In this document: positions 1 through 18,428 of the stretch, in pieces
Numbering within the stretch: position 1 is the stretch's first letter
Layout of the letters: every line of letters begins with the position of its first letter
IMG/VR virus record: IMGVR_UViG_3300034388_000038
Span: 1-59,034 of that record
Strand: one strand, 5' to 3'
DNA: 59,034 nucleotides
Source of the DNA: a virus
Taxonomy: Duplodnaviria; Caudoviricetes
Translations under genes and position numbers: made by a program
The notes under the pieces: generated by a model
What the model saw: only the letters and a program-made list of their open reading frames with translations
What the model was told of the DNA's origin: nothing
Databases searched by the model: none

Positions 1-243
1 CGGCCCATACGCCCGCGTGTCTACGACGACGTACTTCTCACCGGCCTTGGCCTCGGGTCTCGGCGCGTTGGGATAGGTTCTCATCGCTCTTCGTTCCTTA
101 ACGGACGGAGTTGATACCAGTAGATCGAGTACGATCTACCTGTCCTGTCATTTGTAAATATGCTGTGTCGCAGAGTCTTGAAGTTTAGCTTCAACGTCAC
201 GATGTCCCCAGCCTCAGAGCCATAGCTCTCATCGAAGTCATCC
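1..243. repeat. Left copy of 243-bp terminal overlap (circular closure)
   Basis: Matches 58792-59034 except at 128-131 (AGTA vs TACT), 159 (T vs C) and 181 (A vs G). Confidence 0.95.
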
Positions 244-320
244 GCCTCGGCCAAAAGGAACTTCGTTCCGTTCGGCACCTCAGGGTGGGCCTTGCGATCG
301 TCGGCGTAGTATCGCTTCAT
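81..320 (-). CDS. Small RNEER-family paralog E (79 aa), possible SH3-like beta barrel
   Basis: ATG overlaps the upstream gene's TGA (ATGA at 317-320); HPEVPNGT...AGDIVTL...YWYQLRPLRNEER shared with neighbours. Confidence 0.8.
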   Translation of the reverse strand: MKRYYADDRKAHPEVPNGTKFLLAEADDFDESYGSEAGDIVTLKLNFKTLRHSIFTNDRTGRSYSIYWYQLRPLRNEER

Positions 321-562
321 CGCTCTTCGTTCCTCAACAAACTGAACCGGTGCCAATACAGGAACCGTTCGTGTCCGTTCCGCAGATTACGCACTCGAAC
401 GCCGGGGTACGCGCCATTCCAGCTGTCGTGCTTCACCACAACGCATATGTCCCCTGCCTCGATCGTATCCTTACCAGGGTCGGCCATCCCCAAGTCGTCA
501 ACCTTACGGAGCTTCGTGCCGATGGGAATCTCAGGGTGCGCGCGATTCTCAAGTGGTTTCAT
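317..562 (-). CDS. Small RNEER-family paralog D (81 aa)
   Basis: HPEIPIGT...AGDICVV...YWHRFSLLRNEER. Confidence 0.8.
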   Translation of the reverse strand: MKPLENRAHPEIPIGTKLRKVDDLGMADPGKDTIEAGDICVVVKHDSWNGAYPGVRVRNLRNGHERFLYWHRFSLLRNEER

Positions 563-686
563 TGCTTCGCCCCCAGTCTTCAGCCAGACACTGGAATGTC
601 TTCGGGTCCATCAGGTCCTGGCCTTGGGTGTACTCATCGAAAACCACCTCGGCCTCTGGCAACAGGTCTTCATACTCGAAGGTCAT
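549..686 (-). CDS. Small acidic hypothetical protein (45 aa, MTFEYEDLLP...) within the array, not a family member
   Basis: ATG at 686 follows the GAGGA in the previous gene's RNEDR tail; fills the gap between paralogs C and D. Confidence 0.55.
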   Translation of the reverse strand: MTFEYEDLLPEAEVVFDEYTQGQDLMDPKTFQCLAEDWGRSNETT

Positions 687-687
687 G

Positions 688-924
688 TCATCTATCCTCG
701 TTCCGAAGGGGTGCGAGCCGTTTCCATGCGATGTAAACCCTCGTAATTTTTCTACCATCGAAAGAAAATTCTGGGCAATACGAGCCATCATTTTTACAAA
801 GAGCGACGGTCATACCAGCGGCAATGCCAAAGTCTCTACGTAACCATGAGTCATCGATAACGACGTACCTTGACCCGACGCGGGCATCTGGCCTTGGTTC
901 ATCCGGGAAGCATGGCAGTGGCAT
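688..924 (-). CDS. Small RNEER-family paralog C (78 aa)
   Basis: FPDEPRPDA.VGSRY...NDGSYCPEF...WKRLAPLRNEDR; GAGGAG SD upstream. Confidence 0.8.
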   Translation of the reverse strand: MPLPCFPDEPRPDARVGSRYVVIDDSWLRRDFGIAAGMTVALCKNDGSYCPEFSFDGRKITRVYIAWKRLAPLRNEDR

Positions 925-927
925 GAT

Positions 928-1155
928 TTATCTCTCCTCGTTTCTCAATGGGGCCAGCTGGTACCAGTTGACATACCAGTTTTCACCACGACTTCCGCCG
1001 TTGAACCGAGGGCATTTCGTCCCGTCGTTACGGTCCAGGGTGAGAATGTCACCCGCCTTGGCGCCGTAGGTTCTGTCCAAATCTTCAACGACAACGAGGC
1101 GATACCGACTGCCCAGTGGTGCATCGAGTCTTGGTTCATCAGGGAAGGGTGTCAT
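928..1155 (-). CDS. Small RNEER-family paralog B (75 aa)
   Basis: FPDEPRLDAPLGSRY...AGDILTL.RNDGTKCPRF...WYQLAPLRNEER. Confidence 0.8.
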   Translation of the reverse strand: MTPFPDEPRLDAPLGSRYRLVVVEDLDRTYGAKAGDILTLDRNDGTKCPRFNGGSRGENWYVNWYQLAPLRNEER

Positions 1156-1271
1156 ATATCCTCATTTCTGAATGGGCGAAGCCGGCGCCACATCACTTCG
1201 GTCTCAACACCATCGGGGCGAAGGAAAAACGGGCAATTTGTTCCGTCGTTCTTAAATAGGGTCAACACCAT
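1152..1271 (-). pseudogene. 5'-truncated RNEER-family paralog A (39 aa, MVLTLFKNDGTNCPFF...MWRRLRPFRNEDI)
   Basis: Translated by hand (below ORF-track cutoff); only the C-terminal half of the family domain; abuts the 16-bp palindrome, in-frame TGA 7 codons upstream, no nearby SD. Confidence 0.6.
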
Positions 1272-1286
1272 GCCTAACGTTAGGCA
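1271..1286. promoter_or_regulatory. 16-bp palindrome TGCCTAACGTTAGGCA copy 1
   Basis: Exact palindrome about 45 bp downstream of the promoter at 1331-1359. Confidence 0.85.
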
Positions 1287-1330
1287 AGCTCAGAACTCGA
1301 ACTCACCAAGTCCTCTCTCACTGTAAAACC

Positions 1331-1359
1331 ATTATAACACAGTTAAATGCTTAAGTCAA
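1331..1359 (-). promoter_or_regulatory. Sigma70-type promoter driving the RNEER array
   Basis: TTGACT-17 bp-TATAAT on minus strand; near-duplicate of 58538-58566. Confidence 0.8.
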
Positions 1360-1376
1360 GGCGATTGGACGCGTCA

Positions 1377-1848
1377 AATAGTACGTTATAGTTTACGAAT
1401 AGTACGTTGTGTAGTCGGATTAAAATTTCAATCGTGATAGTTGAATATGTGCTGCAAAGGCCCACGGGGTGCGGGTTTAGAGACATATGATTTTTTGAAT
1501 ATCACGAATAGTACGCTTTTTCGGAATCAAGTCGTCTGGAATTTTGAGGATTTTCGTCGATTGAGAAAATCCAGCGGGCTTGGCGCAATTCTCCAGTGAG
1601 ATAAAATCAATCGGCCTAGACGACGGTGTATGAAAAAAAGCATACTATTCGTACTATTTGTATGAGTAAATAAGATAACTATCTATAAACACAGGTGGTA
1701 TTTCCGTCAAACGCAATAGTACGTTAGACTCTTCTGTCGTACTATTAGGGTGGAAAGTCGTGCTATTATACGAAGTTATAGGTCTGCTTTACGGATTTTG
1801 CGTAAAATAGCTACGCCATATAACGTAGCTCTGACTAGGTTATCCACA
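1377..1848. other. Putative replication origin region (AT-rich, AATAGTACG repeats, DnaA box)
   Basis: AATAGTACG at 1377, 1398, 1507, 1715; inverted copies at 1650, 1738; 1-mismatch inverted copies at 1641, 1759; TTATCCACA at 1840-1848; no long ORF. Confidence 0.55.
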
Positions 1849-1904
1849 CAGCCCTACGTGGTAACCTTGCGATCACACTGACTAAACCGCGTCCACCGTA
1901 GGCA

Positions 1905-1926
1905 CTTTGCCTAATGTTAGGCAAAG
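1905..1926. promoter_or_regulatory. Palindrome copy 2 (variant CTTTGCCTAATGTTAGGCAAAG)
   Basis: One C to T change in the core; arms extended by 3 bp each. Confidence 0.8.
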
Positions 1927-2040
1927 ACAGAAATCCGTCAGGGTTTTCGGCGGCCCTCCGTTTGACTGTTGACGAGGGCGGCTAACTACGCGATTTGATT
2001 AATCACAGAGTGATTAATTGCGGAGCGGGTTTTGAGCACT

Positions 2041-2165
2041 GGGAGCTTGGGAGCTTGGGAGCTTGGGAGCTTGGGAGCTTGGGAGCTTGGGAGCTTGGGA
2101 GCTTGGGAGCTTGGGAGCTTGGGAGCTTGGGAGCTTGGGAGCTTGGGAGCTTGGGAGCTTGGGAG
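2041..2165 (+). repeat. Perfect tandem repeat (GGGAGCTT)x15 plus partial unit
   Basis: 120 bp of exact 8-bp units at 2041-2160. Confidence 0.97.
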
Positions 2166-2276
2166 GGGCGAGGCTTCCAAATTCGCCCTAGGATGGGCGA
2201 TCGTTTCCGGGGAAGGGTGAGGGCAGGGTTTAAGGGTTTAGCGCGTTCTGAGGGCAAAGGGCGAAGCGGGGAGGGC

Positions 2277-2307
2277 AAATAAAAACCCCGCCTCTTGCGA
2301 GGCGGGG
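2277..2307 (-). terminator. Intrinsic terminator after gene 2331-2996
   Basis: CCCCGCCTC-GCAA-GAGGCGGGG followed by TTTTTATTT on minus strand. Confidence 0.8.
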
Positions 2308-2330
2308 CAGTGAAGCGGGAAGGGTCGCTG

Positions 2331-2996
2331 TTAGGCGGCGAGGGCGACATCCTCTTTTGCAATCCCAAGGAGTGCCGCGACCTGCATCAGCATACCGTCA
2401 AGGGCGGCCGCCTCTTCTACGGCAACGGCGGCGAGCTTGGTTCCCCGGTTCTTTTCCGCCTCGCGGCGAAGGGCAGAGATGCGAACCCGCGCGGCTGCCA
2501 GATACTCAGCAACTTCACTCTTCAGTTCCTCGTTCTGACGAATCCGGGTGGCTTCGGCACGTGCGCTGTCAGGCGCGGCGGCGGCTTTGCCCTCTTCAGC
2601 CTTTTCCGCCTTTTCCGCCTTTTCCTTCGCGGCATCGGGCGTTCGCGTGGCGCGTTCTCGCTTGGCAATCAGGGCGCAAAAGCGATTGTAGAAGCTCCCC
2701 GCTGGCGTGACGCGCGCCGCCTTGTCACCTTCGGGGACAAGTAAGCCCTTCGATTTGCCGGTGCCGTCTTTCATCGGCCATGCTTTGATGATGATGAGCC
2801 GTTGCTTCAGAGCCTGACGCATGCTTTCGCAATCGGCCAAGGTGAAACCCTCGGCCAGCATCGCCGCGATGACCGCTTCCGTTTTGGCCTGTGCTTCGCC
2901 GCCGACCTTCAAGGCCTTGCCCTCGATTTTCAGAGCCTCGGTGATGATGCTGTTTGTTGCCTCGGTGCGCTCGGTGTCTTTAATCGGCTTAGACAT
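2331..2996 (-). CDS. Hypothetical protein (221 aa, Ala/Lys/Glu-rich, helical), monocistronic
   Basis: AAGGAGG SD, own promoter (3045-3072) and terminator; protein-like composition. Confidence 0.8.
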   Translation of the reverse strand: MSKPIKDTERTEATNSIITEALKIEGKALKVGGEAQAKTEAVIAAMLAEGFTLADCESMRQALKQRLIIIKAWPMKDGTGKSKGLLVPEGDKAARVTPAGSFYNRFCALIAKRERATRTPDAAKEKAEKAEKAEEGKAAAAPDSARAEATRIRQNEELKSEVAEYLAAARVRISALRREAEKNRGTKLAAVAVEEAAALDGMLMQVAALLGIAKEDVALAA

Positions 2997-3044
2997 GGTG
3001 AAACCTCCTTGAATTTTGCGGGCATGATTGCCCGATTTAGGTAC

Positions 3045-3072
3045 ATTCTATCATATTCTGTGCTTAGGTCAA
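3045..3072 (-). promoter_or_regulatory. Sigma70-type promoter for gene 2331-2996
   Basis: TTGACC-16 bp-TAGAAT with TGn extension; shares TTGACNTAAGCA with the promoters at 1359 and 58566. Confidence 0.65.
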
Positions 3073-3079
3073 CAGGTTT

Positions 3080-3099
3080 CTTGCCTAACGTTAGGCAAG
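3080..3099. promoter_or_regulatory. Palindrome copy 3 (CTTGCCTAACGTTAGGCAAG) between divergent promoters
   Basis: Exact core with extended arms, just upstream of the -35 at 3067-3072. Confidence 0.85.
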
Positions 3100-3259
3100 G
3101 GGATGCGGTCGGAATCATTCGGCGCGGGTAGGAAAACTTCGAGGCAGGGGGATGGGGGGACGAGACGGGGGCGGGCCGGTATGCTCTCTCACCCTCGCAA
3201 ATATGTCAGCAAAATTTCCCAGAAATTTCGTCCATCATTTTACCCGCACACTAATTGAC

Positions 3260-3288
3260 TTGACACGCGCAGCCCGCCCTGCCACAAT
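3260..3288 (+). promoter_or_regulatory. Rightward sigma70-type promoter at start of late arm
   Basis: TTGACA-17 bp-CACAAT. Confidence 0.6.
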
Positions 3289-3310
3289 ACCCATGCTTCT
3301 CCTCACTTTG

Positions 3311-3346
3311 GGGAGGGCGGGGAGGCGTCCGCCCTCCCGTTTTTTT
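3311..3346 (+). terminator. Intrinsic terminator in the late leader
   Basis: GGGAGGGCGG/CCGCCCTCCC stem followed by G then T7. Confidence 0.75.
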
Positions 3347-3364
3347 CAACACAGGAGCCTCGAC

Positions 3365-3760
3365 ATGACCACGGCCCTTGAAACCATCACCCCCTGGCCT
3401 CCGCTGCTGCCTATTGATTTGGCTTTGGGCCTGGACGACATCCCCGTTATCCTCGCTCGCCATGGATTGACGGAAAAAGACTACACCCAACTGGCCGATC
3501 TGCCGGCCTTTCGCCTGGAGTTGATGAAAATCAGCAAGGAAATCCGCGAGAACGGACTCTCATTCGCCCGAAAATCAGCCTATCAGGCTGAGTCGTACCT
3601 CGAAGACCTCGATCTGCTCATGCAGAACGTGGACACACCCCCGTCGATCAAGCTCGACATCTTCAAAACCCTCGCCAAGATGGGCGGACTGGAGCCAAAG
3701 GACGCGAAAGCGGACGGAAACGGCGCTCCGTCGTTCAATTTACAGATAAATATAGGCTGA
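3365..3760 (+). CDS. Probable terminase small subunit (131 aa)
   Basis: First late gene, AGGAG SD; helical protein ending in a beta-strand tail FNLQINIG typical of TerS; ORF-track start 3152 is too far upstream. Confidence 0.55.
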   Translation: MTTALETITPWPPLLPIDLALGLDDIPVILARHGLTEKDYTQLADLPAFRLELMKISKEIRENGLSFARKSAYQAESYLEDLDLLMQNVDTPPSIKLDIFKTLAKMGGLEPKDAKADGNGAPSFNLQINIG

Positions 3761-3774
3761 TTCCGCGAAAACCA

Positions 3775-3802
3775 TTGACATCCCACGAAATTTCTGCATA
3801 AT
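3775..3802 (+). promoter_or_regulatory. Possible internal promoter
   Basis: TTGACA-16 bp-CATAAT upstream of gene 3859. Confidence 0.45.
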
Positions 3803-3858
3803 CTCCGTCATCGGGTGGATCAACCACCCCACCGTCAGCCAAATGAAGGAGAAACCAG

Positions 3859-4482
3859 ATGGCCATCAAGTCGAGCAAAGCCGAAATCGGTCAACTCCGG
3901 GTGAAAGAACTCACCCTCACCGGCACCCCAGTGTCCACCGTGGGGAATGGCACCAAAAACGGGTATACTGTCAAAGCGATTGAGTACGGAGACGGCATGC
4001 TGCATCGCACACGCCTCACCTGCGCGGCAACCCCGATTACGATCGCCGACGACGCTGGCGTCGCCCAGTACGGCGGGGTCAAAATCTACGATCTGCCCGC
4101 TGGCTGCATCTGCGTCTTGGGCGCGGTGGTCGATGGCACCCTCACTGCGGGTGTAACTGGTACCGTGATCGCCACCTGGGCGGGCGGGTTCTCGCTGGGT
4201 ACTGCGACGGCCACCACCGGCTCGACCCTGACCGGCACTGAGGCCGACATCCTGCCGGAAGTGAACATTGCTGCGGCGATGGCGAAGGTCGGCACGGTCA
4301 AAGGGTTCCCCACTCCGACAGCGCTGACCGAGTCTGGCTCGCGGTGGCTCAACGGAACGGCGACGGCGTCCGATGTGTATCTGAACTTCGTCATCGACGA
4401 CGATGTCAGCCATACCGCTGGGACCGCGACCTTCACTGGGACTGTTGACCTTGTGTGGGTCAACCTCGGCGACGTAGCGTAA
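3859..4482 (+). CDS. Virion structural (decoration-like) protein, Thr/Gly/Ala-rich beta protein
   Basis: AAGGAG SD; composition and context; followed by GC hairpin 4495-4520. Confidence 0.6.
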   Translation: MAIKSSKAEIGQLRVKELTLTGTPVSTVGNGTKNGYTVKAIEYGDGMLHRTRLTCAATPITIADDAGVAQYGGVKIYDLPAGCICVLGAVVDGTLTAGVTGTVIATWAGGFSLGTATATTGSTLTGTEADILPEVNIAAAMAKVGTVKGFPTPTALTESGSRWLNGTATASDVYLNFVIDDDVSHTAGTATFTGTVDLVWVNLGDVA

Positions 4483-4539
4483 GGACTGACCATGGGCCCG
4501 GGGGCTGACCCTCCCGGGCCTTACTTCAAGGAGTGAGGC

Positions 4540-4890
4540 ATGGTCATCCCGGAAACTTACCCCATCACCATTATCCGCGGGAGAGAGTTCGACGTTGCGT
4601 TTACGTTCGTCGGTCTGAACCTGACAGGGTATACCATCAAGGCCCAGGCGCGGGAGACTGAGTCCCAGTCGTCTGCGCTGATCTTCCCCACAGGCACGAC
4701 GGCATTCACCCTCGCCGTTGTCTCCGGTACCGACTCGACTGTGACCCTCACCCTCACCGATACCCAGACCGCTGGCATCACCGCGAGCCAAGGGTGGTAC
4801 GACCTTCTGCTCACCGATGGCACAGGGAAAGATGAGACCTATATCCGCGGGCCTGTGACTGTGATCGGGTCTGTGACGGTGAAATCATGA
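4540..4890 (+). CDS. Fibre-attachment beta-sandwich protein (BppU/LtfC-like)
   Basis: ITIIRG.EF...NLTGYTIKAQAR...GWYDLLL...RG.VTV pattern; coupled to the downstream fibre gene. Confidence 0.6.
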   Translation: MVIPETYPITIIRGREFDVAFTFVGLNLTGYTIKAQARETESQSSALIFPTGTTAFTLAVVSGTDSTVTLTLTDTQTAGITASQGWYDLLLTDGTGKDETYIRGPVTVIGSVTVKS

Positions 4891-6230
4891 CGACCCCGGT
4901 GCGTGTGACAGTGACCCAGCAGCCGGTGCAGCTCGTCCGGCTCAGAACGATCGGACCCCAAGGCCCGTCAGGGGATGGAGCAGGGGCGACGTTCGCTGCT
5001 GACTTCGCCTCGCTGCCGCTCGTCGGGACGACGAACGTCCTGTACGTCACCCAGGATGAAGGGAAGTTCTACCAGTGGACCGGGGCGGCGTATGAGTTGC
5101 TCACGCCCGTGAGCTATAATGGGATCAAATATCTGACGGCGCCGACGATCAGCACGCAGGAAGAAGGCGATACGTATTGGAACGCCATTGACCACACGCT
5201 GGATATGTACACCGGTCTGGGTGGTGTGGTCGTGCAGCTGGGGCAGGAGTTGTTGCTGCTGGTGTATGTGCCGGCAAACGCGGCCGAGGCGATCAGCGAC
5301 GGATGGCCGGTCTCTCTGGATGGGTCGAGTGGGCTGCGCCCGATCGGGTATCGCACGGATGTCACAGTGTCGACGTCGTGCCGGTGTTTCATGGGCATCG
5401 CGACGATGAACATCCCGAAAGGAACGCATGGATTCGTGGCGATGCGCGGTCTGGTGCGCGGAATTAACACCTCGTCGTTCGAAGAAGGTGACCGGCTGTG
5501 GGTGTCAAACGTGGCACCGTACTTGACGGTGACTGAGCCGACCACTGGGTATCGCGTCCTGGCCGGGATGGTGTTGACGAAGTCAGCCCAGGGGCTGGTG
5601 TTCAGCAGTCCGCGGTCATTTGAGTTGACCGGTGAGATGGTCACGGCGCTGAAGGAAGATGGCACGCTGCTGCCGCAGAAGATCACCTACGCGAATGTGT
5701 ACTATAAAGACCAAGATACGTCGTTGGTTGGGATCAATCCTGCGGGGCCAGCAGCCGCACCCACCACGGACCCGAATGGTGAAGGCTGGTTGTTCGCAGG
5801 GGTTGCGACAGATAATGTCGCTGTGCTGAGCCGCCAGATCAACCACGACTGCAAACAAGGGACAATTAACATTGTCCCGCATATCCACTGGCGCAAGACC
5901 ACCGCGGCATCTGGAAACGTGACGTGGCGACTGGAGGCGAAGTACGCCGCGGTCGGAGGAGATTTCGGGGCGTACACCCAGGTCGGGACGGACGTGAGCA
6001 CGCCGATCGCAGCGACGGTGGATAACAACACAGCCACGCGGCACCTGATAACAAGTTTCGGAGCCATGAGTCTCACCGTCGGACTATCGACCATGATTTA
6101 TTTTAAACTGACTCGGGTTGCCAGCAACACCGGGACAGATACGTACAACGCGGATGCGTTGGCAATGAGTTTTGACTTCCACTACCCCGTCGACTCGCCG
6201 GGATCGGCGAGCGAATATTCGAAAACTTGA
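4887..6230 (+). CDS. Virion fibre/spike-like protein (447 aa)
   Basis: Short collagen-like GPQGPSG, modular beta-rich domains; ATGA overlap with previous gene. Confidence 0.6.
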   Translation: MTTPVRVTVTQQPVQLVRLRTIGPQGPSGDGAGATFAADFASLPLVGTTNVLYVTQDEGKFYQWTGAAYELLTPVSYNGIKYLTAPTISTQEEGDTYWNAIDHTLDMYTGLGGVVVQLGQELLLLVYVPANAAEAISDGWPVSLDGSSGLRPIGYRTDVTVSTSCRCFMGIATMNIPKGTHGFVAMRGLVRGINTSSFEEGDRLWVSNVAPYLTVTEPTTGYRVLAGMVLTKSAQGLVFSSPRSFELTGEMVTALKEDGTLLPQKITYANVYYKDQDTSLVGINPAGPAAAPTTDPNGEGWLFAGVATDNVAVLSRQINHDCKQGTINIVPHIHWRKTTAASGNVTWRLEAKYAAVGGDFGAYTQVGTDVSTPIAATVDNNTATRHLITSFGAMSLTVGLSTMIYFKLTRVASNTGTDTYNADALAMSFDFHYPVDSPGSASEYSKT

Positions 6231-6255
6231 CCAATAGACTGTCGGCCTGTAGGAT
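6227..6255 (+). promoter_or_regulatory. Possible internal promoter
   Basis: TTGACC-17 bp-TAGGAT upstream of gene 6275. Confidence 0.45.
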
Positions 6256-6274
6256 AGGCCCATACGGAGGACAT

Positions 6275-6649
6275 ATGAGCGATCCATGTAAACAAGAGGG
6301 CCCGGTCGATGACCTTTGGGAGAAGGTGGGTGCGCAGGATCGCATCATTGTCCGGGTTGAAACCTCCGTCGAACAGCTGGTCGCTGAGTTTAGGGAAGTC
6401 GCCAAGGATTTGCGTGCGTCATTGCTGGATAGTCGGGAGCAGAGAATTCGTCAGGAGCAGCAGGATAAAGCGATCAACACTCTGTTCTCGATGGTGCGGG
6501 ACGAGAAAGATTCCAGGTCGACTGAGTCGCAGGCGTTTCGTACATGGAAGGACAACATGGAAGGGCGTATCTCGACTCTTAAGGCCATCCCAATTATCTG
6601 TGTCATTCTTACCACACTGATTGCGCTGGGAAATTACTTTAACAAATAG
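6275..6649 (+). CDS. Coiled-coil protein with C-terminal TM helix (holin/XhlA-like topology)
   Basis: GGAGG SD; hydrophobic tail AIPIICVILTTLIALG. Confidence 0.55.
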   Translation: MSDPCKQEGPVDDLWEKVGAQDRIIVRVETSVEQLVAEFREVAKDLRASLLDSREQRIRQEQQDKAINTLFSMVRDEKDSRSTESQAFRTWKDNMEGRISTLKAIPIICVILTTLIALGNYFNK

Positions 6650-6659
6650 CGGAGGTTTT

Positions 6660-6932
6660 ATGACAGCCCCATACGATCGTTTTGGAAAGGCAAAAGTTGA
6701 GGCCCTTATGTACCCCGCGACCGGCGGTGCCGCAGTGGTCCCTCACGATACAAACTTCCTTGCGCAGGCTAGCCGAGGGCTGTGGGTAGGTGGCGCGGGT
6801 AATCTCGTTTTGACTCTTCTCGACGGTAGTGAGATTACCCTGAGTAATGTCCCTGCCGGCTCGCTCCTTCCGTTGCGGGTTTGCAGAGTGAAGACGACCA
6901 GCACTGCGACACTCATTGTTGCGCTTTACTAG
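6660..6932 (+). CDS. Head-spike base-like protein (resembles RcGTA Rcc01079 family)
   Basis: RGLWVGGAGNL.L...NVPAG.LLP.RV.RV..T.TAT.IVALY motif; GGAGG SD. Confidence 0.6.
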   Translation: MTAPYDRFGKAKVEALMYPATGGAAVVPHDTNFLAQASRGLWVGGAGNLVLTLLDGSEITLSNVPAGSLLPLRVCRVKTTSTATLIVALY

Positions 6933-6941
6933 GGGTTAACT

Positions 6942-8411
6942 ATGGCAACATTCTATGTGCGTACTGACGGGACGGCGCTGAAAGCTGCGGCTGTTGGTCC
7001 GTCTTCCGACTCAACGGCGTGTATGTCTGTGACGACGTTCAATGCCGCCACCTTTTCCGCCGGAGATATTGTCTACTTCTCGGGGCTGGGTGGAGACTTT
7101 ACGGAAGCTGTTGTGATTCCTTCGTCTGGCTCTTCTGGAAATCCCATCTACTATATCGCAGACCCCGCCTCAGCACCAACGATTGACGGGGCGGATACAA
7201 TTGACACCCTGATCGATGTGAACAGCAAGAACTACGTTGAAATATCCGGCTTTACTTTGATTGACGCAGTAACGACCTGCTACCAATCTCGCGGGACCAG
7301 TACGGGGGTTGTGGTCAGGGACGTAACAGCATCGGGGAGTGGAAATCAGGCGTTCCAAAATCTTGATACCGCCTCTACGACGTATTATGACATTGTTGGT
7401 TCAGGTTGTGCCGACGACGGATTCTCAATGCACTCGGGCGCCGTTGCAGTCATTCACGGTGCGACGTTCAGTGGGAATGACCAAGGAATAAATATTATAC
7501 AAAACTCCAGTCTTACTGCTAACGACGTAACTCTGACCGGGAATACAAGTTACGGGTTTTGGCAGACAGTTGCCGGTGCTACGGTGTCTGTTTTTAACCG
7601 TCTTACTTGCGACGACTTGATTAAAGTTGATACAGGAACATGCACAATTAATTATTCAACTCATATAGGAACAGTGCAAGCGCAAGGTGGTAATATAACA
7701 TTCAATCATAGCTCTGTTACCGGAAGTGTAACGGTACTTGTAGCGGCTTCGACCATTGCCTTTTCGCACTGTTCGTACAATGGACTTGCAAACACAGGCG
7801 CCGTTGGCGGTACGTTGACCTTCTCCAAGTGCCGCATGACAAACACCGGTAACAACAATGTTGTTGACTGCACAAACGCCTCAAGCCCAGCCGGGAACAT
7901 CAGCGTCTCTTACTGCATCTTCACTGGGATTATGGCAACGAGATTCGGTATCGTCAACCGCGCCCCTAATATCACTACGGCGTACAACAACGTCTTTTAT
8001 GGTGTCGGCGGGGTTGGGCGAGGGATTTTCCACGCTGGCGTTATGACTGTCAACAACAACATTATGGTCGGGCTGCAAGATACAATCTTCACGGTCGCGG
8101 GGAGGACTGGAACGTACAGTAACAACTGTTTCTTCGGGAATACTGCGACAATCACAGGGGCTGGCGGCACTCAAAGCAATGGCGTTACGAGTGATCCAAC
8201 GTTCGCAAACCCGAGTGGCGGGTATTTCGCGCTCCTCTCCGGGTCGCCTTGCTTGGCCGCAGGGGTTGTGGTGGGTCTGCCTAGCGATTTTATTGACGCG
8301 GCGGTCCCATTTGGCGCCACTCCGAGCATTGGCGCCTACGAGCAGCCGGTGCGCAGGGCGCTGGGTATGGCCGATGGTATTGCTCGGCATACGATTCGGA
8401 TTGGCCTATGA
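6942..8411 (+). CDS. Right-handed parallel beta-helix (pectin-lyase-like) fibre/depolymerase
   Basis: Asn/Thr/Gly ladders, NNVFY/NNIMV/NNCFFGN repeats, C-terminal DP.F...L..GSP...G...PSIGAYE motif. Confidence 0.75.
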   Translation: MATFYVRTDGTALKAAAVGPSSDSTACMSVTTFNAATFSAGDIVYFSGLGGDFTEAVVIPSSGSSGNPIYYIADPASAPTIDGADTIDTLIDVNSKNYVEISGFTLIDAVTTCYQSRGTSTGVVVRDVTASGSGNQAFQNLDTASTTYYDIVGSGCADDGFSMHSGAVAVIHGATFSGNDQGINIIQNSSLTANDVTLTGNTSYGFWQTVAGATVSVFNRLTCDDLIKVDTGTCTINYSTHIGTVQAQGGNITFNHSSVTGSVTVLVAASTIAFSHCSYNGLANTGAVGGTLTFSKCRMTNTGNNNVVDCTNASSPAGNISVSYCIFTGIMATRFGIVNRAPNITTAYNNVFYGVGGVGRGIFHAGVMTVNNNIMVGLQDTIFTVAGRTGTYSNNCFFGNTATITGAGGTQSNGVTSDPTFANPSGGYFALLSGSPCLAAGVVVGLPSDFIDAAVPFGATPSIGAYEQPVRRALGMADGIARHTIRIGL

Positions 8412-8839
8412 CCCGAGTCGCGCTCATACGAACGCGGCATACCGACCAAGGAACGCAGGGGGTGTTGATCCTGCCGGAGGGGGTGTTCTGCAATACCCTT
8501 GAACTCCCGTGGCGCGAGAACAAGCCGAAGATCAGTTGCATCCCCTGCGGAGAGTTTGACGTCAAGATTCGGCAGTCGCCGCGGTTCGGTACCATCTACG
8601 AGGTGCAGGACGTTCCGGATCGGCGCTACATCCTGATTCACTCGGGCAATCTGGCCGGGGATGTCACCAAGGGCTATCGCTCGCACGTCGAAGGGTGTAT
8701 CCTGCTCGGCAAATATTTTGGCACACTCGACAGTCAACTGGCTATACTGTACAGCCGGCCGACGGTTCGTGAATTCATGGACCAGCTTGATAGGCAGCCG
8801 TTCCGCCTCATCGTGGAGGATCAGTCATGTGGCAAGTGA
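8408..8839 (+). CDS. DUF5675-like putative endolysin
   Basis: TLELPW.EN...SCIP.G.F...VPDR.YILIH.GN......EGCILLG motif; next to holin-like gene. Confidence 0.7.
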   Translation: MTRVALIRTRHTDQGTQGVLILPEGVFCNTLELPWRENKPKISCIPCGEFDVKIRQSPRFGTIYEVQDVPDRRYILIHSGNLAGDVTKGYRSHVEGCILLGKYFGTLDSQLAILYSRPTVREFMDQLDRQPFRLIVEDQSCGK

Positions 8840-9360
8840 TACTTGGAGCAGTGACCGGATTTTTAGGGCCTGTTATCACCCAATATTTTGACCTTCAGAA
8901 AGAGAAGCTCAAGGCCGAAGAGCGCGCTAAAGACCGTGCGCACGAATTGGCTACGATTGACAAAGAGGGCGAATGGGCTGCGAAGAAGCTGACGATCGAA
9001 GGCGACATCAGGTCTGCGGTCGCTGCGGAGCAGTCCTTCGCCGCGTCCTATAACTTCGCAAACGATAAGCTGATTCCTGATGATGCGAAGCTCACAGAAA
9101 AGCAGCTGTCCTGGGTGATCCGCATTGAGTTGTTCAGCAAGGCTGTACGCCCGATGATAACCTCTTACTATACACTGGCGTTTACCGTGATGTACGCCGC
9201 GTTCGCTTATCAGTGTGTGCAGGCAGGAAGCGACTTTTTCAGCACCGAGGAGGCCAGGGTCATATTCCGTGAAAGTACCTATTCCATTATTGGGATGACC
9301 GAGACTACCGGACTGTGGTGGTACGGAGCCAGACTTCTCAGCAAACGAGGCGCCAAATAG
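8827..9360 (+). CDS. Multi-TM holin-like protein
   Basis: N-terminal hydrophobic segment, VRP.I + TM segment, C-terminal WWYGAR. Confidence 0.6.
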   Translation: MWQVILGAVTGFLGPVITQYFDLQKEKLKAEERAKDRAHELATIDKEGEWAAKKLTIEGDIRSAVAAEQSFAASYNFANDKLIPDDAKLTEKQLSWVIRIELFSKAVRPMITSYYTLAFTVMYAAFAYQCVQAGSDFFSTEEARVIFRESTYSIIGMTETTGLWWYGARLLSKRGAK

Positions 9361-11732
9361 TGAGCGATCGAGTCTACAACGCACCGAAAGTTGTCTCCCA
9401 GTTCATGCGGAGCAACGCCCCTCTGCGCGTCATCAACGGGCCTCTGGGCTGTACCTCCGCGGATACGGAATTCCTGTCTCCGACGGGGTGGGTTCGTATG
9501 GATCAATACCGTGAGGGAATGTTGGTGGCTCAGTGGCACCAGGATGGCCGAATCGAGTTTGTTCAGCCGAGTCGGTATGTTGTGGAGCCGTGCGGAGAAC
9601 TCATCTATTTCCACAACAAGTCGTTGTCGATGCAGTTGAGCGATGAGCATCGTATGCCGCTCTACCAGTGGGACGGAGCATTCGTTGTGAAGGAGGCGGC
9701 TGCGGTTGCTAAGAAGCCGTCGCGGCATATTGTCCCTACAACCTTTACCCCGCCATACGCGGACGCTCCTGTGTCGGATGACGAGATTCGCCTGGCGGTG
9801 GCGATCAACGCAGATGGGCACCACGTCAAGCGCGGGTTTCAGACTCAGATTACCGTACGGAAGCCCCGCAAGAAGGCCCGCATAGCGGAACTGCTGGAGG
9901 CGGTTGGCGTCGAATTCAAGACGAGGACGTACGCGAGCAGGCCGACAGAGACGACGTTCGACTTCATCCATTCATACAAGGGCAAGCGCTTTTCTGGGTG
10001 GTATTGGTGGACATTGTCGAAGCGCCAACTGGCGGTCGTTATCGACGAAATGAGTCACTGGGATGGGTTGTTTACGACGGACGAAGTTCGCTTCCACGGC
10101 GCGTATAAAGAGGACGCCGACTTCATCCAGTATGCCGCTCATGCGATTGGCGGAAAAGCGACGATCCACCGAGTCAGATACGCTGCGGCTAACTGGTCTG
10201 ATCTATATGTGGTTCATGTAGCCATGCCTGGGTCTGTGAAGTCGGTTGTAACCCTGCGTGGAGACGGAGTCACCATCGAGCGGATACCGACCACCGATGG
10301 GAAGAAGTACTGCTTTACTGTCCCAACTGGTTTCTTTGTGGCGCGGCATAACAATGCGATATTTGTGACGGGTAACTCGGGCAAAAGCTCGGGGTGCGCC
10401 ATTGAGATTCTTCGCCGCTGCCAGATGCAGCGTGTTGGGCCAGACGGCTTCCGCCGTTCCCGCTGGGCGATTGTTCGTAACACCGCGCCGCAGCTGCGCG
10501 ATACGACGATGAAGACCTTCTTCGACTGGATACCTCCCGGGGTGGCCGGCCGGTGGAAAGAGACCGAGAAGACATTCTACCTGGAACTCGGAGATGTTCG
10601 TGCGGAGATCATGTTCCGCCCCCTGGATTCCCCAGAAGATGTGCAGCGAGTCCTGTCCCTGGAACTGACGGGTGCCTGGCTGAACGAGTGCCGCGAGATT
10701 CCGATGGAGATTCTCCAAGCGCTGCAAGGTCGTCTCTGGCGTTACCCCTCCAAGGCCAACGGTGGTTCGTCGTGGTGCGGGATTATCGCAGATACCAACC
10801 CCCCGGAAGAGGGGTCGTACTGGTACAAGGTCATCGAGCATCTGCCTATCGAGGAGACGAACCCGGACTCCGTCGTCATCTGCGAATCGTTCAAGCAACC
10901 CTCGGGTCTGTCTCCGGATGCGGATAACATCGCCAACCTCGATAACCCGAACTACTACCAGGACCTGGCGCGCGGCAAGACCGAGGAATGGGTGAACACC
11001 TACATCCATGGGATGTACTCCCCGTCGCAGTCTGGTAAGCCGGTGTACCTAAAGAGTTTCAAGGGCGACCGTCATGTCTCCCAGGTGCCGCTCATCCCTG
11101 CGTATGGATTGCCTATCGTGGTAGGGGTCGACTTCGGTTTGACCCCAGCGGCGGTGTTCATGCAGATGCAGCACGACGGCCGGGTTAAAGTTCTTCGTGA
11201 ACTGACCGAGTTCGACATGGGGATCAAGCGGTTCGCCGAACAGCGGCTGCGGCCGATGGTGAAGAACCTGTTTTCCGATATGTCCATCGTCCTTATTGGC
11301 GACCCCGCTGGGGTACAGCGCGTGGGGACGGACGAGCAGACGTGCTTCAAGGTGCTCAAGGACAGCGGGTTCTACGCCAAGCCGGCGCATACGAACGACC
11401 CTGCGTCCAGGATCGGGTCATTTCTCGAAGCCCTCTCGTCTTATCCGGACGGCGAGCCACTGATCCAGATTGATCCGAGCTGCAAGATGCTCATCGAGGC
11501 GCTGCGGTCGAAGTATCGCTACGTCAAATTCAAGGGCGCGGTGGATAAGTTCACTGACAAGCCGGAGAAGAACAACTGGTCCCACGTCATGGAGGCTGCG
11601 CAGTACGCCCTCATGTTTCTCTTGAATAAATACGACGCTTCGGATTATATTCACGTCAGCCAGCGTCATAATTCTGACGCCTTCACAACGCGCCGGACTT
11701 ATCGACCGGCTGATTCCCACACGGGGTACTGA
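9360..11732 (+). CDS. terL: Terminase large subunit with intein (790 aa precursor, about 481 aa spliced)
   Basis: Walker A GPLG/SGKS split by intein; WAIVRNT..QLRDTT, GAWLNE, DTNPP, nuclease GVDFG; GTG start at 9360. Confidence 0.93.
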   Translation: MSDRVYNAPKVVSQFMRSNAPLRVINGPLGCTSADTEFLSPTGWVRMDQYREGMLVAQWHQDGRIEFVQPSRYVVEPCGELIYFHNKSLSMQLSDEHRMPLYQWDGAFVVKEAAAVAKKPSRHIVPTTFTPPYADAPVSDDEIRLAVAINADGHHVKRGFQTQITVRKPRKKARIAELLEAVGVEFKTRTYASRPTETTFDFIHSYKGKRFSGWYWWTLSKRQLAVVIDEMSHWDGLFTTDEVRFHGAYKEDADFIQYAAHAIGGKATIHRVRYAAANWSDLYVVHVAMPGSVKSVVTLRGDGVTIERIPTTDGKKYCFTVPTGFFVARHNNAIFVTGNSGKSSGCAIEILRRCQMQRVGPDGFRRSRWAIVRNTAPQLRDTTMKTFFDWIPPGVAGRWKETEKTFYLELGDVRAEIMFRPLDSPEDVQRVLSLELTGAWLNECREIPMEILQALQGRLWRYPSKANGGSSWCGIIADTNPPEEGSYWYKVIEHLPIEETNPDSVVICESFKQPSGLSPDADNIANLDNPNYYQDLARGKTEEWVNTYIHGMYSPSQSGKPVYLKSFKGDRHVSQVPLIPAYGLPIVVGVDFGLTPAAVFMQMQHDGRVKVLRELTEFDMGIKRFAEQRLRPMVKNLFSDMSIVLIGDPAGVQRVGTDEQTCFKVLKDSGFYAKPAHTNDPASRIGSFLEALSSYPDGEPLIQIDPSCKMLIEALRSKYRYVKFKGAVDKFTDKPEKNNWSHVMEAAQYALMFLLNKYDASDYIHVSQRHNSDAFTTRRTYRPADSHTGY
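9450..10376 (+). mobile_element. Intein (309 aa) with degenerate LAGLIDADG-like endonuclease
   Basis: Starts CTSADTEFL, block B SDEHRM, ends FVARHNNAIFVTGN followed by Ser; AINADG and HWDG blocks. Confidence 0.9.
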
Positions 11733-11733
11733 T

Positions 11734-13779
11734 ATGATTGATCTCGACCGCAAGATAGCTCAGCAGCTTGGCCCGATGCTCGCTCGTCGCTTCGAGCAGT
11801 ACAAGAACGACCGGAAGCCGATCGAACTGAAGTGGATGAAGAACATCCGTCAGTTCCGCGGGGTCTATGATCCTGAGATTGCTGAGTTGATTCCGGCCGA
11901 GCGGTCTCATGTCTACCCCCGGGACTCCCGTGTCAAGCTCACGGGCTTCGTTGCCAAGATGATGGAGATGATGTTCCCCGTCTCCGAGACGAACTTCGAA
12001 GTGATTCCGACCACCATCCCCTCCATCTCCAAACTCGAACTCGACAAGCTCGTCCTGGAAATCGAAGCCAGCCATGTCATGGAGGCCCAGCAGACTGGCC
12101 AACTCAAGCCGGTCACCAGCGAAGAGATCGAGGTAAAAGTTCAGGACTTTGCCCGGAAGCGTGCGTCTGCGATGGAGGCCCAATGCAAAGACCAGCTCGA
12201 CGAAATAGACTACCCCGAACTCTGCAAGCGCGCCTTACGCAGCGGCGGCATATTCAGCTATGGTATCGTAAAGGGTCCGATGGTTCGCTTTCAGCAGGAG
12301 CGGTACTGGGAGCCGAACGGGATGACCTATGTGCCAGTGGTGAAGATGGCGCCCCGGCCGGTCTACGACAACCGGAAAGTCTGGGACATCTACCCGGACA
12401 TGGGCGCGAAGTCCTGGGATAAGCAGGACGGCCTGTTCGAGCGTGTCATCCTGACCCGGCCGGAACTCTACAAGATGAAGGAACGCGAGGAGTTCTATGG
12501 CGATGTGATCGGCGAGTATCTGCGCGACCATCAGACCGGGAACTACAAAGTTCTCGACTTCGAGACTGACCTGCGCGTGATGAACAACACGGCGCAGACC
12601 TCCGCCCTGGATCAGAGCAAGTACGAAGTCATCGTTTATTACGGCTTCGTCTCGGCACACGAATTGTCCCTGCTTGGCAAGGAGTTCTCCAAGGACGAAA
12701 TCTGCAACAGCTACCTGGTCGAAGTCTGGATGCTGGATGGCGAGGTCATCAAGTTCGACGGGATGCCGTTCGGCGTGGCCCCGCACAGCAAGTACCATAT
12801 CTTCATCTACGGCGAGGACGAGGACTCTGGTGTGACGGGGGTCTCGTTGATGGACGACATCCGCGACTCGCAGCTTTCGATCTGTGCCTCGACCCGCATG
12901 CTGATGGACAACTCGGCCAGCACCGCCGGCCCGGTCTTTGAAGTGAACCGGGACCTTCTAGCGCGGGGTGAAGACGTCGGTCCGATCCATGCGTTCAAGA
13001 CCATTTACCGTGAGGGCACAGGTCCGGACGCCCAGGCGCCGGCCGTGCGCGACATACAGATTCAATCCCACATCGCGGAGCTGACGAGTGTCGTCAGCAT
13101 GTTCCGTCAAAATCTTGACACTGAGTCGACCCTTCCATCCTGGACGATGGGCCAGCCGGAGAAACTGGGCGAGGCCTTCCGGACCAGCAACAACATGTCG
13201 ATGATGACCGGTGGCGCGACGACCATTACCAAAGACATCGTCCGTTCGTTCGACAAGTTTGTCTCCTCGATCATCCAGAGCCTTGTTGAATGGAATATGG
13301 AGTTCAACGAGCGCGAAGACATCAAGGGCGATTTCCAGGTGCGCGCGAAAGGCAGCCGGTCTCTGGTGGCCAAAGAGGTGCGCGGCCAGGCGATCGAGCA
13401 GTTCATGCAGACCCTTCAGCCGGACGAGCGGGCGCTGCTCCGTAAGCTGCCGACCCTCCGTGAGCGCATGAAGGCGCGCGACCTGCCCCACGAGCAACTG
13501 CTGGTGACCGACAGCGAGGCCGATGAGATTCTGGAAGGAATGGCTATGGAGCAGCAGAAGGTCGCTGCGGTCTCCGAGCAGGAGCAGATGGCCAAGATCA
13601 AGAAGCTGGTCGCCGCGGCGCTGAAAGATGAGGCCATGGCCCAGGACATCTCCAGCATGACGGGTCCGAAGGCGCAGAAGTTGATCGTCGACGCGGATAC
13701 CAAACAGGGCGAGAGTGGGATGAAGCAGACTCAAGGGCTGATGGAGATGACTGCTGAGCCCGAGGAGATGATGTCGTGA
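11734..13779 (+). CDS. Portal protein
   Basis: 681 aa immediately after TerL; G.GIVKGP, DIYPD, GVSL.D.IRD.Q......R...DN motifs. Confidence 0.85.
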   Translation: MIDLDRKIAQQLGPMLARRFEQYKNDRKPIELKWMKNIRQFRGVYDPEIAELIPAERSHVYPRDSRVKLTGFVAKMMEMMFPVSETNFEVIPTTIPSISKLELDKLVLEIEASHVMEAQQTGQLKPVTSEEIEVKVQDFARKRASAMEAQCKDQLDEIDYPELCKRALRSGGIFSYGIVKGPMVRFQQERYWEPNGMTYVPVVKMAPRPVYDNRKVWDIYPDMGAKSWDKQDGLFERVILTRPELYKMKEREEFYGDVIGEYLRDHQTGNYKVLDFETDLRVMNNTAQTSALDQSKYEVIVYYGFVSAHELSLLGKEFSKDEICNSYLVEVWMLDGEVIKFDGMPFGVAPHSKYHIFIYGEDEDSGVTGVSLMDDIRDSQLSICASTRMLMDNSASTAGPVFEVNRDLLARGEDVGPIHAFKTIYREGTGPDAQAPAVRDIQIQSHIAELTSVVSMFRQNLDTESTLPSWTMGQPEKLGEAFRTSNNMSMMTGGATTITKDIVRSFDKFVSSIIQSLVEWNMEFNEREDIKGDFQVRAKGSRSLVAKEVRGQAIEQFMQTLQPDERALLRKLPTLRERMKARDLPHEQLLVTDSEADEILEGMAMEQQKVAAVSEQEQMAKIKKLVAAALKDEAMAQDISSMTGPKAQKLIVDADTKQGESGMKQTQGLMEMTAEPEEMMS

Positions 13780-13985
13780 GTAAATCAATGACCCGCGAAA
13801 GCGAACTGATTGCTAAATTGAAATCGCACCAAGGAACCGAAGTCCTTGCGTTGTGGCTGGAACTGCTTGAAGAAAAATTAGATAAGTACAAGAGTCGCCT
13901 GGTCCAATCGGAGGACCAGAACGTCAGAGGTCGGGCGCAGGAGTGTATTGATTTACTAAAGCACTTCCGCAACGATTTGAATTGA
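13776..13985 (+). CDS. Small head-assembly-region protein (69 aa)
   Basis: Coupled to portal stop; helical, position typical between portal and scaffold. Confidence 0.65.
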   Translation: MSKSMTRESELIAKLKSHQGTEVLALWLELLEEKLDKYKSRLVQSEDQNVRGRAQECIDLLKHFRNDLN

Positions 13986-14010
13986 CGTAGATTTTTTCTT
14001 CTAGTAGACT
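13982..14010 (+). promoter_or_regulatory. Promoter upstream of scaffold/capsid genes
   Basis: TTGACG-17 bp-TAGACT. Confidence 0.55.
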
Positions 14011-14032
14011 CACCCACAACCATGGAGGAAGT

Positions 14033-14839
14033 ATGCCGGACCCCGCTGAGCAGTTAACTGATGTTATCGATGACTATGCCGTTGCTTTTGATGAAGCGAT
14101 GGCGATGGACGCCGACCCTGCGCCGGCTCCCGTGGACCCTGCTCCCGTTGCGCCTGCACCGCCGGTTGCTGCTGACCCTGCTCCTGCTCCGGTCGAGGCT
14201 CCGGCCGCGCCAGCTCCTGCCGCTCCGCCGGCCGAACTGGTTCAACTCCAAACCCAGGTCGCTGATTTGATGGCGCAGCTAACTGCGCTTAAGGCAGCAC
14301 CCCAGACTCAGGCGACCGCAGCCCAGGTCGATGAGCTGGAAGACGAACTGAAATGGCTGGAGGGGGAATTCGCCTCCGACTGGCCGGACATGAAGAAAGC
14401 GATCGACATTGTCAAAAAGTTGGTAACTCGTGCGCAGGAAGGAAAGATCAAGGAAGTCGCTGACACGGTTACGCCGCTCGTCCAGAAACAAGAGGCGCAG
14501 GCCTTCTACGGTGAACTCAAAGCGCTGGTGCCGGATGTCGACACTATCCGCGACGGATTCATCGGGTGGGTCAAATCCCAACCCGAAGCATTGAGGAAAG
14601 CCTATACCTCAATCGTGGAGACCGGGACGCCCCAGGATACCGCGGCTCTTATTTCCCTATACAAGCAGGCCGTTCCCGCTCCAGTTTCCCCGCCGGCCGC
14701 GCCGGCGATTCCAGCAGCGACTAAGCTGCGCAATATGGAAGACCTCGGAACGCGACGTTCTGCGACCGCCGCCCCAGCAGGGGCACTCGACTACGACAGT
14801 GCCTTTAACGAGGCCGACCGCGACCCCAACATTCGGTAA
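14033..14839 (+). CDS. Capsid scaffolding protein
   Basis: Pro/Ala-rich N-terminus, coiled coil, directly before MCP; GGAGG SD. Confidence 0.75.
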   Translation: MPDPAEQLTDVIDDYAVAFDEAMAMDADPAPAPVDPAPVAPAPPVAADPAPAPVEAPAAPAPAAPPAELVQLQTQVADLMAQLTALKAAPQTQATAAQVDELEDELKWLEGEFASDWPDMKKAIDIVKKLVTRAQEGKIKEVADTVTPLVQKQEAQAFYGELKALVPDVDTIRDGFIGWVKSQPEALRKAYTSIVETGTPQDTAALISLYKQAVPAPVSPPAAPAIPAATKLRNMEDLGTRRSATAAPAGALDYDSAFNEADRDPNIR

Positions 14840-14851
14840 GGAGATTCAGTC

Positions 14852-15841: not shown

Positions 15842-15848
15842 TCTAACA

Positions 15849-15876
15849 GGGGGGAGGTAGCCCCTCCCCCCGCTTT
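15849..15876 (+). terminator. Stem-loop after MCP (weak terminator/stabiliser)
   Basis: GGGGGGAGG/CCTCCCCCC stem, short T run. Confidence 0.5.
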
Positions 15877-15891
15877 CAAAGGAGTTGTATC

Positions 15892-16260: not shown

Positions 16261-16318
16261 GGCGCTGTAACCATGAGGGGGCGGGTTTCCGCCCCCTCCA
16301 ATTCAAAGGAGAATGCTT

Positions 16319-16795: not shown

Positions 16796-16799
16796 GGCA

Positions 16800-17459: not shown

Positions 17460-17461
17460 CC

Positions 17462-18418: not shown

Positions 18419-18428
18419 GGAGGAAGTC

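Follow-up and report, generated by a model that had tools for sequence, protein, structure and literature searches.

We describe an array of small paralogous genes in an uncultivated sediment phage (Caudoviricetes), represented by the record IMGVR_UViG_3300034388_000038, which is rated 99% complete; the whole 59,034-nucleotide (nt) record is referred to here as the window. The array lies on the minus strand and is transcribed in the order A, B, C, X, D, E, F, where X is an unrelated open reading frame (ORF) and the remaining genes are members of one protein family (Table 1). On balance, we lean toward interpreting it as a series of single-domain genes, peculiar to this lineage and each translated on its own, that opens the leftward early operon of a tailed phage of ~58.8 kb. 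Each gene encodes one copy of a phage-specific SH3-like beta-barrel, and a near-consensus promoter for host sigma-70, P1, precedes the array. The array expands and contracts in natural populations, with the loss in the window variant falling between two copies of a palindrome. The conserved core of the barrel may serve as a scaffold, while a variable loop between strands 1 and 2, together with the loop between strands 3 and 4, would let the paralogues differ in what they bind. Made separately and acting right after infection, the products would be small proteins that bind host macromolecules in the service of host takeover or counter-defense, a role suggested by position, fold and analogy.

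Members of the array

An earlier note on this DNA had described six family ORFs together with the 45-amino-acid (aa) ORF X, and all of them were found at the coordinates given, on the minus strand. Family membership was examined with a profile built from 15 small relatives of other origin (the outside profile) and searched against 1,116 six-frame ORFs of at least 30 aa. This profile recovered genes B, C, F, A and E as well as protein H (E-values of 1.6e-19 to 1.4e-6) and no other ORF, while it missed gene D and ORF G. Leave-one-out profiles of the eight proposed domains recovered seven of them (9e-17 to 3e-6), with D at 1.3e-6, whereas G was not recovered even at E ≤ 100. Taken together, the profile results support six array members plus H and leave G doubtful, with D qualifying for the family via its paralogues in the window only.

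The six array ORFs proposed earlier therefore do form a family by profile, although A represents only the C-terminal half of a 72-aa gene, the intact form of which (P0016) is located on a 60,701-nt sister contig. As for the two further relatives that had been proposed, H was upheld by the outside profile and G was not. The candidacy of G was dropped as unsupported, since it was missed by the outside and leave-one-out profiles alike and its structural model, made from a two-row alignment, was uninformative (predicted local distance difference test [pLDDT] of 46.8). Both G and H had been placed upstream of the array; in the direction of transcription they are downstream of it.

In the alignment of the eight domains, a W and an N are invariant, and identity to B ranges from 20 to 47%. 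The middles of the proteins are highly divergent, as had been noted, but the divergence extends to NDG(S/T)xCPxF, the most conserved motif of the family, which is degenerate in D and E. The only match of ORF X was the same protein as a longer (69-aa) gene call. In the sister contig, gene F encodes 88 aa ending in EVPGF; here it is 17 codons longer (58558-58610) and runs into a second promoter, P2, which overlaps this 3′ extension. The extra codons are probably insignificant read-through.

Table 1. Coordinates of the array, its control elements and other features of the window
Feature	Position	Strand	Remarks
Gene A, 39 aa	1152-1271	−	5′-truncated remnant, C-terminal half of the domain, without its own Shine-Dalgarno (SD) sequence
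Gene B, 75 aa	928-1155	−	Member; outside-profile E 1.6e-19; ATGA overlap with A
Gene C, 78 aa	688-924	−	Member; outside-profile E 4.1e-19; in the frame of B, TAA+ATC between
ORF X, 45 aa	549-686	−	Acidic (isoelectric point [pI] 4.05); unrelated ORFan; 14-nt overlap with the start of D
Gene D, 81 aa	317-562	−	Divergent member without the NDG motif; leave-one-out E 1.3e-6
Gene E, 79 aa	81-320	−	Member; outside-profile E 2.4e-10; ATGA overlaps on both sides
Gene E, allelic second copy of 3′ part	58872-59034	−	Terminal redundancy of the record
Gene F, 105 aa	58558-58875	−	Last array member; outside-profile E 4.4e-15; start repeated at 84-1
ORF G, 83 aa	57356-57607	−	Membership doubtful; only W-RLRPVRND and some N-terminal similarity in common with the family
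Protein H, 264 aa	55820-56614 (family domain 56372-56614, N-terminal)	−	Outside-profile E 1.4e-6
Promoter P1	1331-1359	−	TTGACT-17-TATAAT, TG extended −10; 11/12 sigma-70 matches; head of array
Promoter P2	58538-58566	−	TTGACA-17-TATACT, TG; 11/12 matches; closes array, drives next gene
Palindrome core GCCTAACGTTAGGC of 18-bp TTGCCTAACGTTAGGCAA	1272-1285		Deletion breakpoint of the window variant
Palindrome copy	58481-58494		~45 nt downstream of P2, likewise at P1
Large terminase	9315-11732	+	
Major head protein	14852-15841	+	
2,442-aa protein	26849-34177	+	End of structural block; matches only giant-protein PHROGs of unknown function (phrog_11358, 30335, 22591)

Fold of the domain

An AlphaFold2 model of B, computed from the eight-row window alignment and hence speaking for the family consensus rather than for each member, is a five-stranded SH3-like barrel (pLDDT of 85.8; predicted template modeling score [pTM] of 0.74), which agrees with the SH3/KOW-like barrels that the earlier note had proposed. 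The antiparallel strands, at residues 17-20, 37-42, 50-53, 58-61 and 67-69, form a small barrel of ~60-70 residues. Among PDB structures, the top Foldseek matches were the CPH domains of CUL7 and PARC (E-values of 0.008 and 0.02; template modeling [TM] score of 0.59), followed by SH3, Tudor and PWWP domains, with Foldseek probabilities of 0.95-1.0 to many SH3, CPH and Tudor chains. An ESM Atlas model (pTM of 0.70) also falls on SH3-type folds. Among viral models (BFVD), the domain matched segments of larger proteins (340-430 aa) from Klebsiella phage KpCHEMY26, Escherichia phage Pollock and Pseudomonas phage phiPsa315, as well as small DUF4314 proteins.

Like the window domain, the CPH domains of CUL7 and PARC (PDB 2jng and 2juf) are five-stranded barrels of ~65 residues, with 24-26% identity to B over 62 columns in Foldseek; unlike it, they are eukaryotic, and the window domain has a signature of its own (NDG(S/T)xCPxF ... 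WxxLAP). In the BFVD and Atlas searches, the small phage and bacterial proteins of DUF4314 (PF14192) are similar in size and fold; the Atlas feature score of 0.88 is a lead at most. Searched against the window, neither the Pfam Cul7 model of the CPH domain (PF11515, six frames) nor DUF4314 gave a match at E ≤ 10, and DUF4314 did not appear in single-protein Pfam scans at E ≤ 1; the relationship is therefore one of fold resemblance and not of family membership. PDB sequence searches with A4 and with alignment A8 (see below) gave best E-values of 0.63 and 0.0033, respectively, the latter to uL14 and not taken as meaningful.

Junctions and the shared tail

The array genes follow one another closely. 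ATGA stop/start overlaps occur at A/B, D/E and E/F, the B/C junction reads TAA+ATC+ATG in a single frame, and the C/X junction reads TGA+C+ATG; at all five, the tail of the upstream gene precedes the next start with coupling features. At the remaining one, X/D, gene D begins within X, behind a G-rich stretch. SD-like GAGGA, GAGGAG or AGGAA..GAAGAG is located just before the next ATG at each junction inside the array. Overlaps or gaps of 1-3 nt, combined with SD-like purines in the last codons of the upstream gene, fit translational coupling, as far as sequence can indicate it.

The tail itself, PLRNE(E/D)R, is present in genes A-E and in P0016, P0032 and P0050, all three of which are encoded by the sister contig of 60,701 nt. 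An ending in RN[ED][ED] is absent from all 121 external representatives of the family described below. As judged from these comparisons, the tail is lineage-specific and confined to the window phage and the sister contig.

The earlier note had read the tail as doubling as the translation signal of the next gene. The SD-like purines and stop/start overlaps bear this out, but the tail is not purely a signal. The stretch AGGAACGAAGAGCGATGA is identical at 98-81 and 334-317; across the tails, however, the L, R and E codons vary (L/F encoded by TTC/TTG/CTT/TTG/TTA, R by AGA/AGA/CGG/AGG/AGG and E by GAG or GAA), and RN(D/E) is kept in F, G and H despite the lack of a start codon after it. This synonymous codon variation, along with the RN(D/E) of F, G and H, indicates a protein-level constraint on L-R-N, while the E-(E/D)-R codons give the purine run for the next start. 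The tail is shaped partly by a protein constraint and partly by a Shine-Dalgarno constraint; L-R-N is kept at the protein level, whereas the need for a ribosome-binding site mainly accounts for E-(E/D)-R and the stop codon. The motif GGAACGARGA does not serve this phage generally for ribosome binding (17 occurrences versus 9.07 expected, off gene starts outside the array).

A second array bears on the same question. In L013, an IMG/VR record of 45,802 nt from an unrelated phage with 34% GC, eight small genes within ~4 kb (4989-8834) end in (I)GG(K/R)L(L/I/C), and the first of them holds the only match to the domain profile in that record. The four junctions printed for L013 read GGA GGT AAA/AGG TTR followed by TTA TGA, ATA TGA or TGT TAG, and three of these four are ATGA (4-nt) overlaps with the next gene. 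L013 thus indicates that conserved tails of coupled arrays are partly a by-product of the ribosome-binding site. More generally, a ribosome-binding site located in an upstream gene can fix a shared C-terminal peptide, which calls for caution in reading such tails as protein motifs. Among the small genes of L013 are also those for a RimK-like ATP-grasp protein (7285-8013) and for a protein of 469 aa that matches amidoligases weakly; the GG tails might serve as enzyme substrates as well.

Promoters and the palindrome

P1 and P2 sit in a 49-nt module, the two copies of which are 84% identical (second copy at 58518-58566). Given the position of P1, the leftward early region opens with the array as its first transcription unit. 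The array thus stands at the head of the early operon, behind a near-consensus promoter, in support of the early role proposed previously.

The 14-nt core GCCTAACGTTAGGC of the palindrome occurs at eight sites in the window (seven exact and one with a single mismatch; 0.15 expected), starting at 1272, 1909, 3083, 47326, 50444, 53711, 56687 and 58481 and each extending 13 nt further; most often it is part of the full TTGCCTAACGTTAGGCAA. Every copy falls either in the divergent control region or among the early genes of the minus strand, in the space between two genes or directly ahead of one. One lies 10 nt upstream of the −35 element of a promoter at 3072-3045, and six of the eight have no adjoining copy of the promoter module. 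The palindrome has no T-run, and a terminator scan called no terminator at its copies near P1 and P2. Its role could be that of an operator bound by a dimeric regulator or, in RNA, that of a hairpin or a processing site. Folding of the leader RNA was unexceptional (z-score of −1.01).

A further repeat is located in the non-coding DNA between a terminator at 2308-2285 and P1, where ~17 tandem copies of the octamer TGGGAGCT occupy window positions 2040-2173. This tract may be origin-like, slippage-prone or an assembly product; its 8-bp period is odd for iterons.

Array variation in natural populations

Three sediment-metagenome runs (X1, X2 and X3) hold the region, and their contigs were compared with window positions 1-1500. 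A contig from X1 (33,454 nt; depth of 65.5) matches the window at 1500-1273 and at 1288-1, with 1,771 extra bases between the two segments, and the overlap of the segments (16 nt) falls on the palindrome TTGCCTAACGTTAGGCAA. The extra 1.77 kb contains three further tail-like matches and would hold at least three further family genes. A contig from X3 leaves the window at 1288 and enters sequence encoding the N-terminal half of P0016. X2 holds both forms, the short one as a 151-nt contig bridging the junction and the long one as another contig leaving at 1273. Overall, the long form is present in all three runs and the short form in one of them (X2), and the order of the shared genes is identical in both forms.

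On the evidence of these contigs, the window reads as a deletion variant from which 1.77 kb has been lost, including at least two whole family genes and the N-terminal half of A; gene A as found here results from a deletion between the leader copy of the palindrome and the copy inside the full-length gene. A loose end of the X1 contig at 1289 was considered as a third variant of gene A and rejected, since its letters flank the palindrome copy at 47326, which marks it as a mis-laid piece of the same contig.

Two expectations of the earlier note met with different outcomes here. That array content is not fixed among close relatives was borne out by the 1.77-kb indel in the runs and by the sister contig. 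The proposed recombination from tail to tail was not supported: the sole natural indel seen breaks at the 18-bp palindrome, between the leader copy and the copy inside full-length A. The metagenome contigs show directly that the copy number of early accessory genes varies at a short dispersed palindrome.

Two known systems are comparable. In T4-type phages, according to Arbiol et al. 2010 (PMC2839356), PeSL cassettes are short regulatory modules present in several copies, each joining a strong sigma-70-like promoter to a terminator stem-loop; they are scattered among small early genes that are non-essential, and recombination between their copies produces insertions and deletions between close relatives. 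The window resembles these cassettes in having a repeated promoter module (two copies), and in that an indel between palindrome copies (1,771 nt, 16-nt palindrome overlap) separates close relatives. A palindrome also lies ~45 nt downstream of both promoters. The window differs in that the recombining element is an 18-bp perfect palindrome, which has no T-run, is not terminator-like and also occurs away from promoters, and in that the intervening genes are paralogues of one family, whereas those of PeSL are unrelated ORFans. Recombination at regulatory cassettes, known from T4-type phages, would in this way extend to an unrelated phage. In Srikant et al. 2022 (PMC9391042), the T4 counter-defense gene tifA underwent segmental amplification under laboratory selection, giving recent, identical copies. 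The copy number of a small accessory gene likewise changes by recombination in a phage genome here, but, set beside the tifA copies as reported there, those of the array are old (20-47% identity).

The domain in other phages

A HMMER scan of 1.84 billion cluster representatives (E ≤ 1e-3) gave 130 matches, 31 of them at E ≤ 1e-10. Nine are proteins of the window phage itself or of the sister contig. Among the 121 external representatives, 93 are at least 200 aa long and 20 are no longer than 130 aa; a local hmmsearch found at least one domain in 115 of them, at least two in 57 and at least three in 16. Elsewhere, then, the domain occurs mostly as two to six repeats per polypeptide or fused to other modules. 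The signature of the family is FPDEPRP..G.KY.V ... G..VTL..NDG(S/T).CP.F ... W..LAP, and none of the window members scores above threshold with a model from Pfam, PHROG or NCBIfam.

Annotation was scanned for 118 of the 130 representatives, after exclusion of five that duplicate proteins of the window and of seven that exceed 700 aa. Pfam matches were DUF3310 in four, PDZ_6 in two and Lar in one, while 42, 39, 24 and 18 matched phrog_13152, 26483, 12785 and 10201, respectively, all of unknown function. In the cultured phage Pollock, the hypothetical protein gp82 (342 aa), encoded close to the right terminal repeat, has two domain matches (E-values of 1.1e-11 and 3e-5). By profile, PHROGs 13152, 26483, 12785 and 10201, with gp82 of Pollock (an Escherichia phage of the Schitoviridae) as an example, hold the same domain as the window genes; these relatives are mostly multidomain, whereas the window genes are single domains in an array with coupling-type junctions, and their own PHROG matches are weak (E-values of 0.01-0.2). 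Our literature search found nothing on DUF4314, on the four PHROG identifiers or on SH3-like early anti-defense proteins of phages.

Many multidomain relatives have one architecture in common (P0041, P0054, P0063, P0082, P0104, P0014, P0021 and P0007; alignment A8). A small beta module at the N terminus is followed by the domain, then by a linker rich in Cys and finally by a conserved C-terminal module (YTAEQI.EARDIVYRI ... DEWNDDIGR.VALCKLTGE.LP.W), for which neither Pfam nor PDB gave a match. Aligned to H by hhalign, this multidomain subgroup gave a probability of 95.8, over the domain only. P0032, a 67-aa protein of the sister contig, is named "mannose/cellobiose epimerase-like protein" in one source; its size and fold show that this name is wrong.

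The family is thus a widespread phage-specific module that curated libraries leave unnamed and that now has a clean signature and a confident fold model. Its single-domain versions, small enough for individual expression, offer an entry to the function of multidomain proteins such as that of Pollock.

Alternative explanations

Several observations weigh against the reading of the array as a run of functional, individually translated binders. None of the family members has a known partner, target or phenotype, and sequence searches of Pfam, NCBIfam and PDB were empty. SH3-like barrels are too common for the fold to narrow down function, and the isoelectric points of the array proteins, which span 5.3-9.6, give no clue to binding targets. 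The loss of the NDG motif in D and E and the truncation of A may mean that part of the array is decaying rather than diversifying. The five coding variants separating the window from X1 and X3 within 1-1288 (three in E and two in A) are all nonsynonymous, a sample too small to show positive selection. The origin of the array is also only loosely resolved by a quick maximum likelihood tree of 75 columns and 103 domain segments (96 from outside with a score of at least 25 and near-full coverage, and seven window rows; A was excluded). It groups B, C, F, D, E, P0032 and P0050 weakly (Shimodaira-Hasegawa-like approximate likelihood ratio test [SH-aLRT] of 81) and leaves P0016 outside this main array group, as it does H and G, which are on long branches; the subgroup of E, D and P0050 is better supported (SH-aLRT of 95). 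A single local expansion is likely, not proven: the domain sequences are compatible with it, and the tree is weak.

With these points in view, we weighed other explanations of the array. The genes could be the pieces of a multidomain repeat gene that is broken, or breaking up, through linker stops and frame changes, with some pieces still made or useful and the tail a remnant of the old linker. Most relatives are indeed multidomain (57 of 121 with at least two copies), the LRNEER|M.PFPDEPRP junction is located where relatives have linkers of 6-20 aa, B and C share a frame with only TAA+ATC between them, A is truncated, and D and E are without the NDG motif. However, each unit starts at an ATG of its own, 3-10 nt behind an SD-like stretch, three junctions overlap by exactly ATGA with a shift of frame, no unit contains an internal stop, and the sister contig adds three intact single-domain genes that end in this tail too, so we regard a break-up as unlikely. 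An explanation of similarly low probability concerns function: the barrels may bind nucleic acid or the translation or transcription machinery and act as early regulators of phage or host expression, not as defense inhibitors. The fold matches include a PWWP domain with single-stranded DNA and Tudor domains, relatives carry weak sequence echoes of ribosomal uL14 and S17, and some relatives are fused to a DUF3310 module that also matched "nucleotide kinase" PHROGs. Yet the array proteins have no basic charge bias (pI 5.3-9.6), the uL14 and S17 echoes are below threshold, and the top fold matches (CPH and SH3) are protein-binding modules.

The remaining explanations concern how the array changes. 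Were the conserved tails themselves recombination substrates, self-coupling cassettes would be added, deleted and shuffled by tail-to-tail exchange; the D and E tails agree at all of 18 nt, the additional 1.77 kb of the long form has tail-like matches as well, and array content differs between close relatives. The only indel observed, though, is bounded by the palindrome and not by tails, identical tail stretches are short (18 nt) while other tails differ at several bases, and the genes common to the two forms keep their order, all of which makes this mechanism slightly less probable still than the two above. A bolder extension of the preferred reading, in which the array of single-domain genes behaves like an accordion, is also improbable in our estimate. 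The palindrome, and perhaps the tails, would let a population gain, lose and rejoin single-domain cassettes, including half-domains such as A, so that virions would differ in SH3-like inhibitors tuned to local host defenses; multidomain proteins would represent the fused, frozen state.

Genome organization and other observations

Window positions 1-243 and 58792-59034 are 98% identical. This end repeat gives a genome unit of 58,791 bp, with the redundant ends reflecting assembly redundancy, and it means that gene F runs on from position 84 over the circular junction, so the array does span that junction, as had been proposed. The two end copies differ at six bases, which change four residues of gene E. 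These differences include a 4-base stretch that is reverse-complemented (TACT/AGTA within CGTACTCG/CGAGTACG) and two single-base differences that are the alleles separating runs X1 and X3 from X2 (positions 159 and 181).

The plus strand from ~3.1 to 34.2 kb carries the structural genes, and the minus strand from 34.9 kb through the junction to ~3.0 kb carries replication and early genes, including those for a family-A DNA polymerase, a DUF927 primase-helicase and an SNF2 helicase. GC content is ~58% genome-wide versus 50% in bases 1-2000. Rfam (at gathering thresholds) and a transfer RNA scan found nothing in the window.

Searches for related loci with B, the 686-aa and 221-aa neighbors, P0032 and P0050 found no relative, and alignment A3 found no related locus among viral and metagenome contigs; neither result implies that the phage is isolated. 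Against a cultured-phage database, there was no match to window positions 1-20000 by megablast or to B, P0006 and P0029 by tblastn. The sole tblastn match of P0011 among cultured phages was to Burkholderia phage FLC9, through the C-terminal part of P0011 only.

Directly downstream of H is an early gene for a 686-aa protein (53729-55789, minus strand) with numerous CxxC pairs in its C-terminal third and no match in Pfam or PHROG; it is followed by an M28/M20-like peptidase gene (52454-53617).

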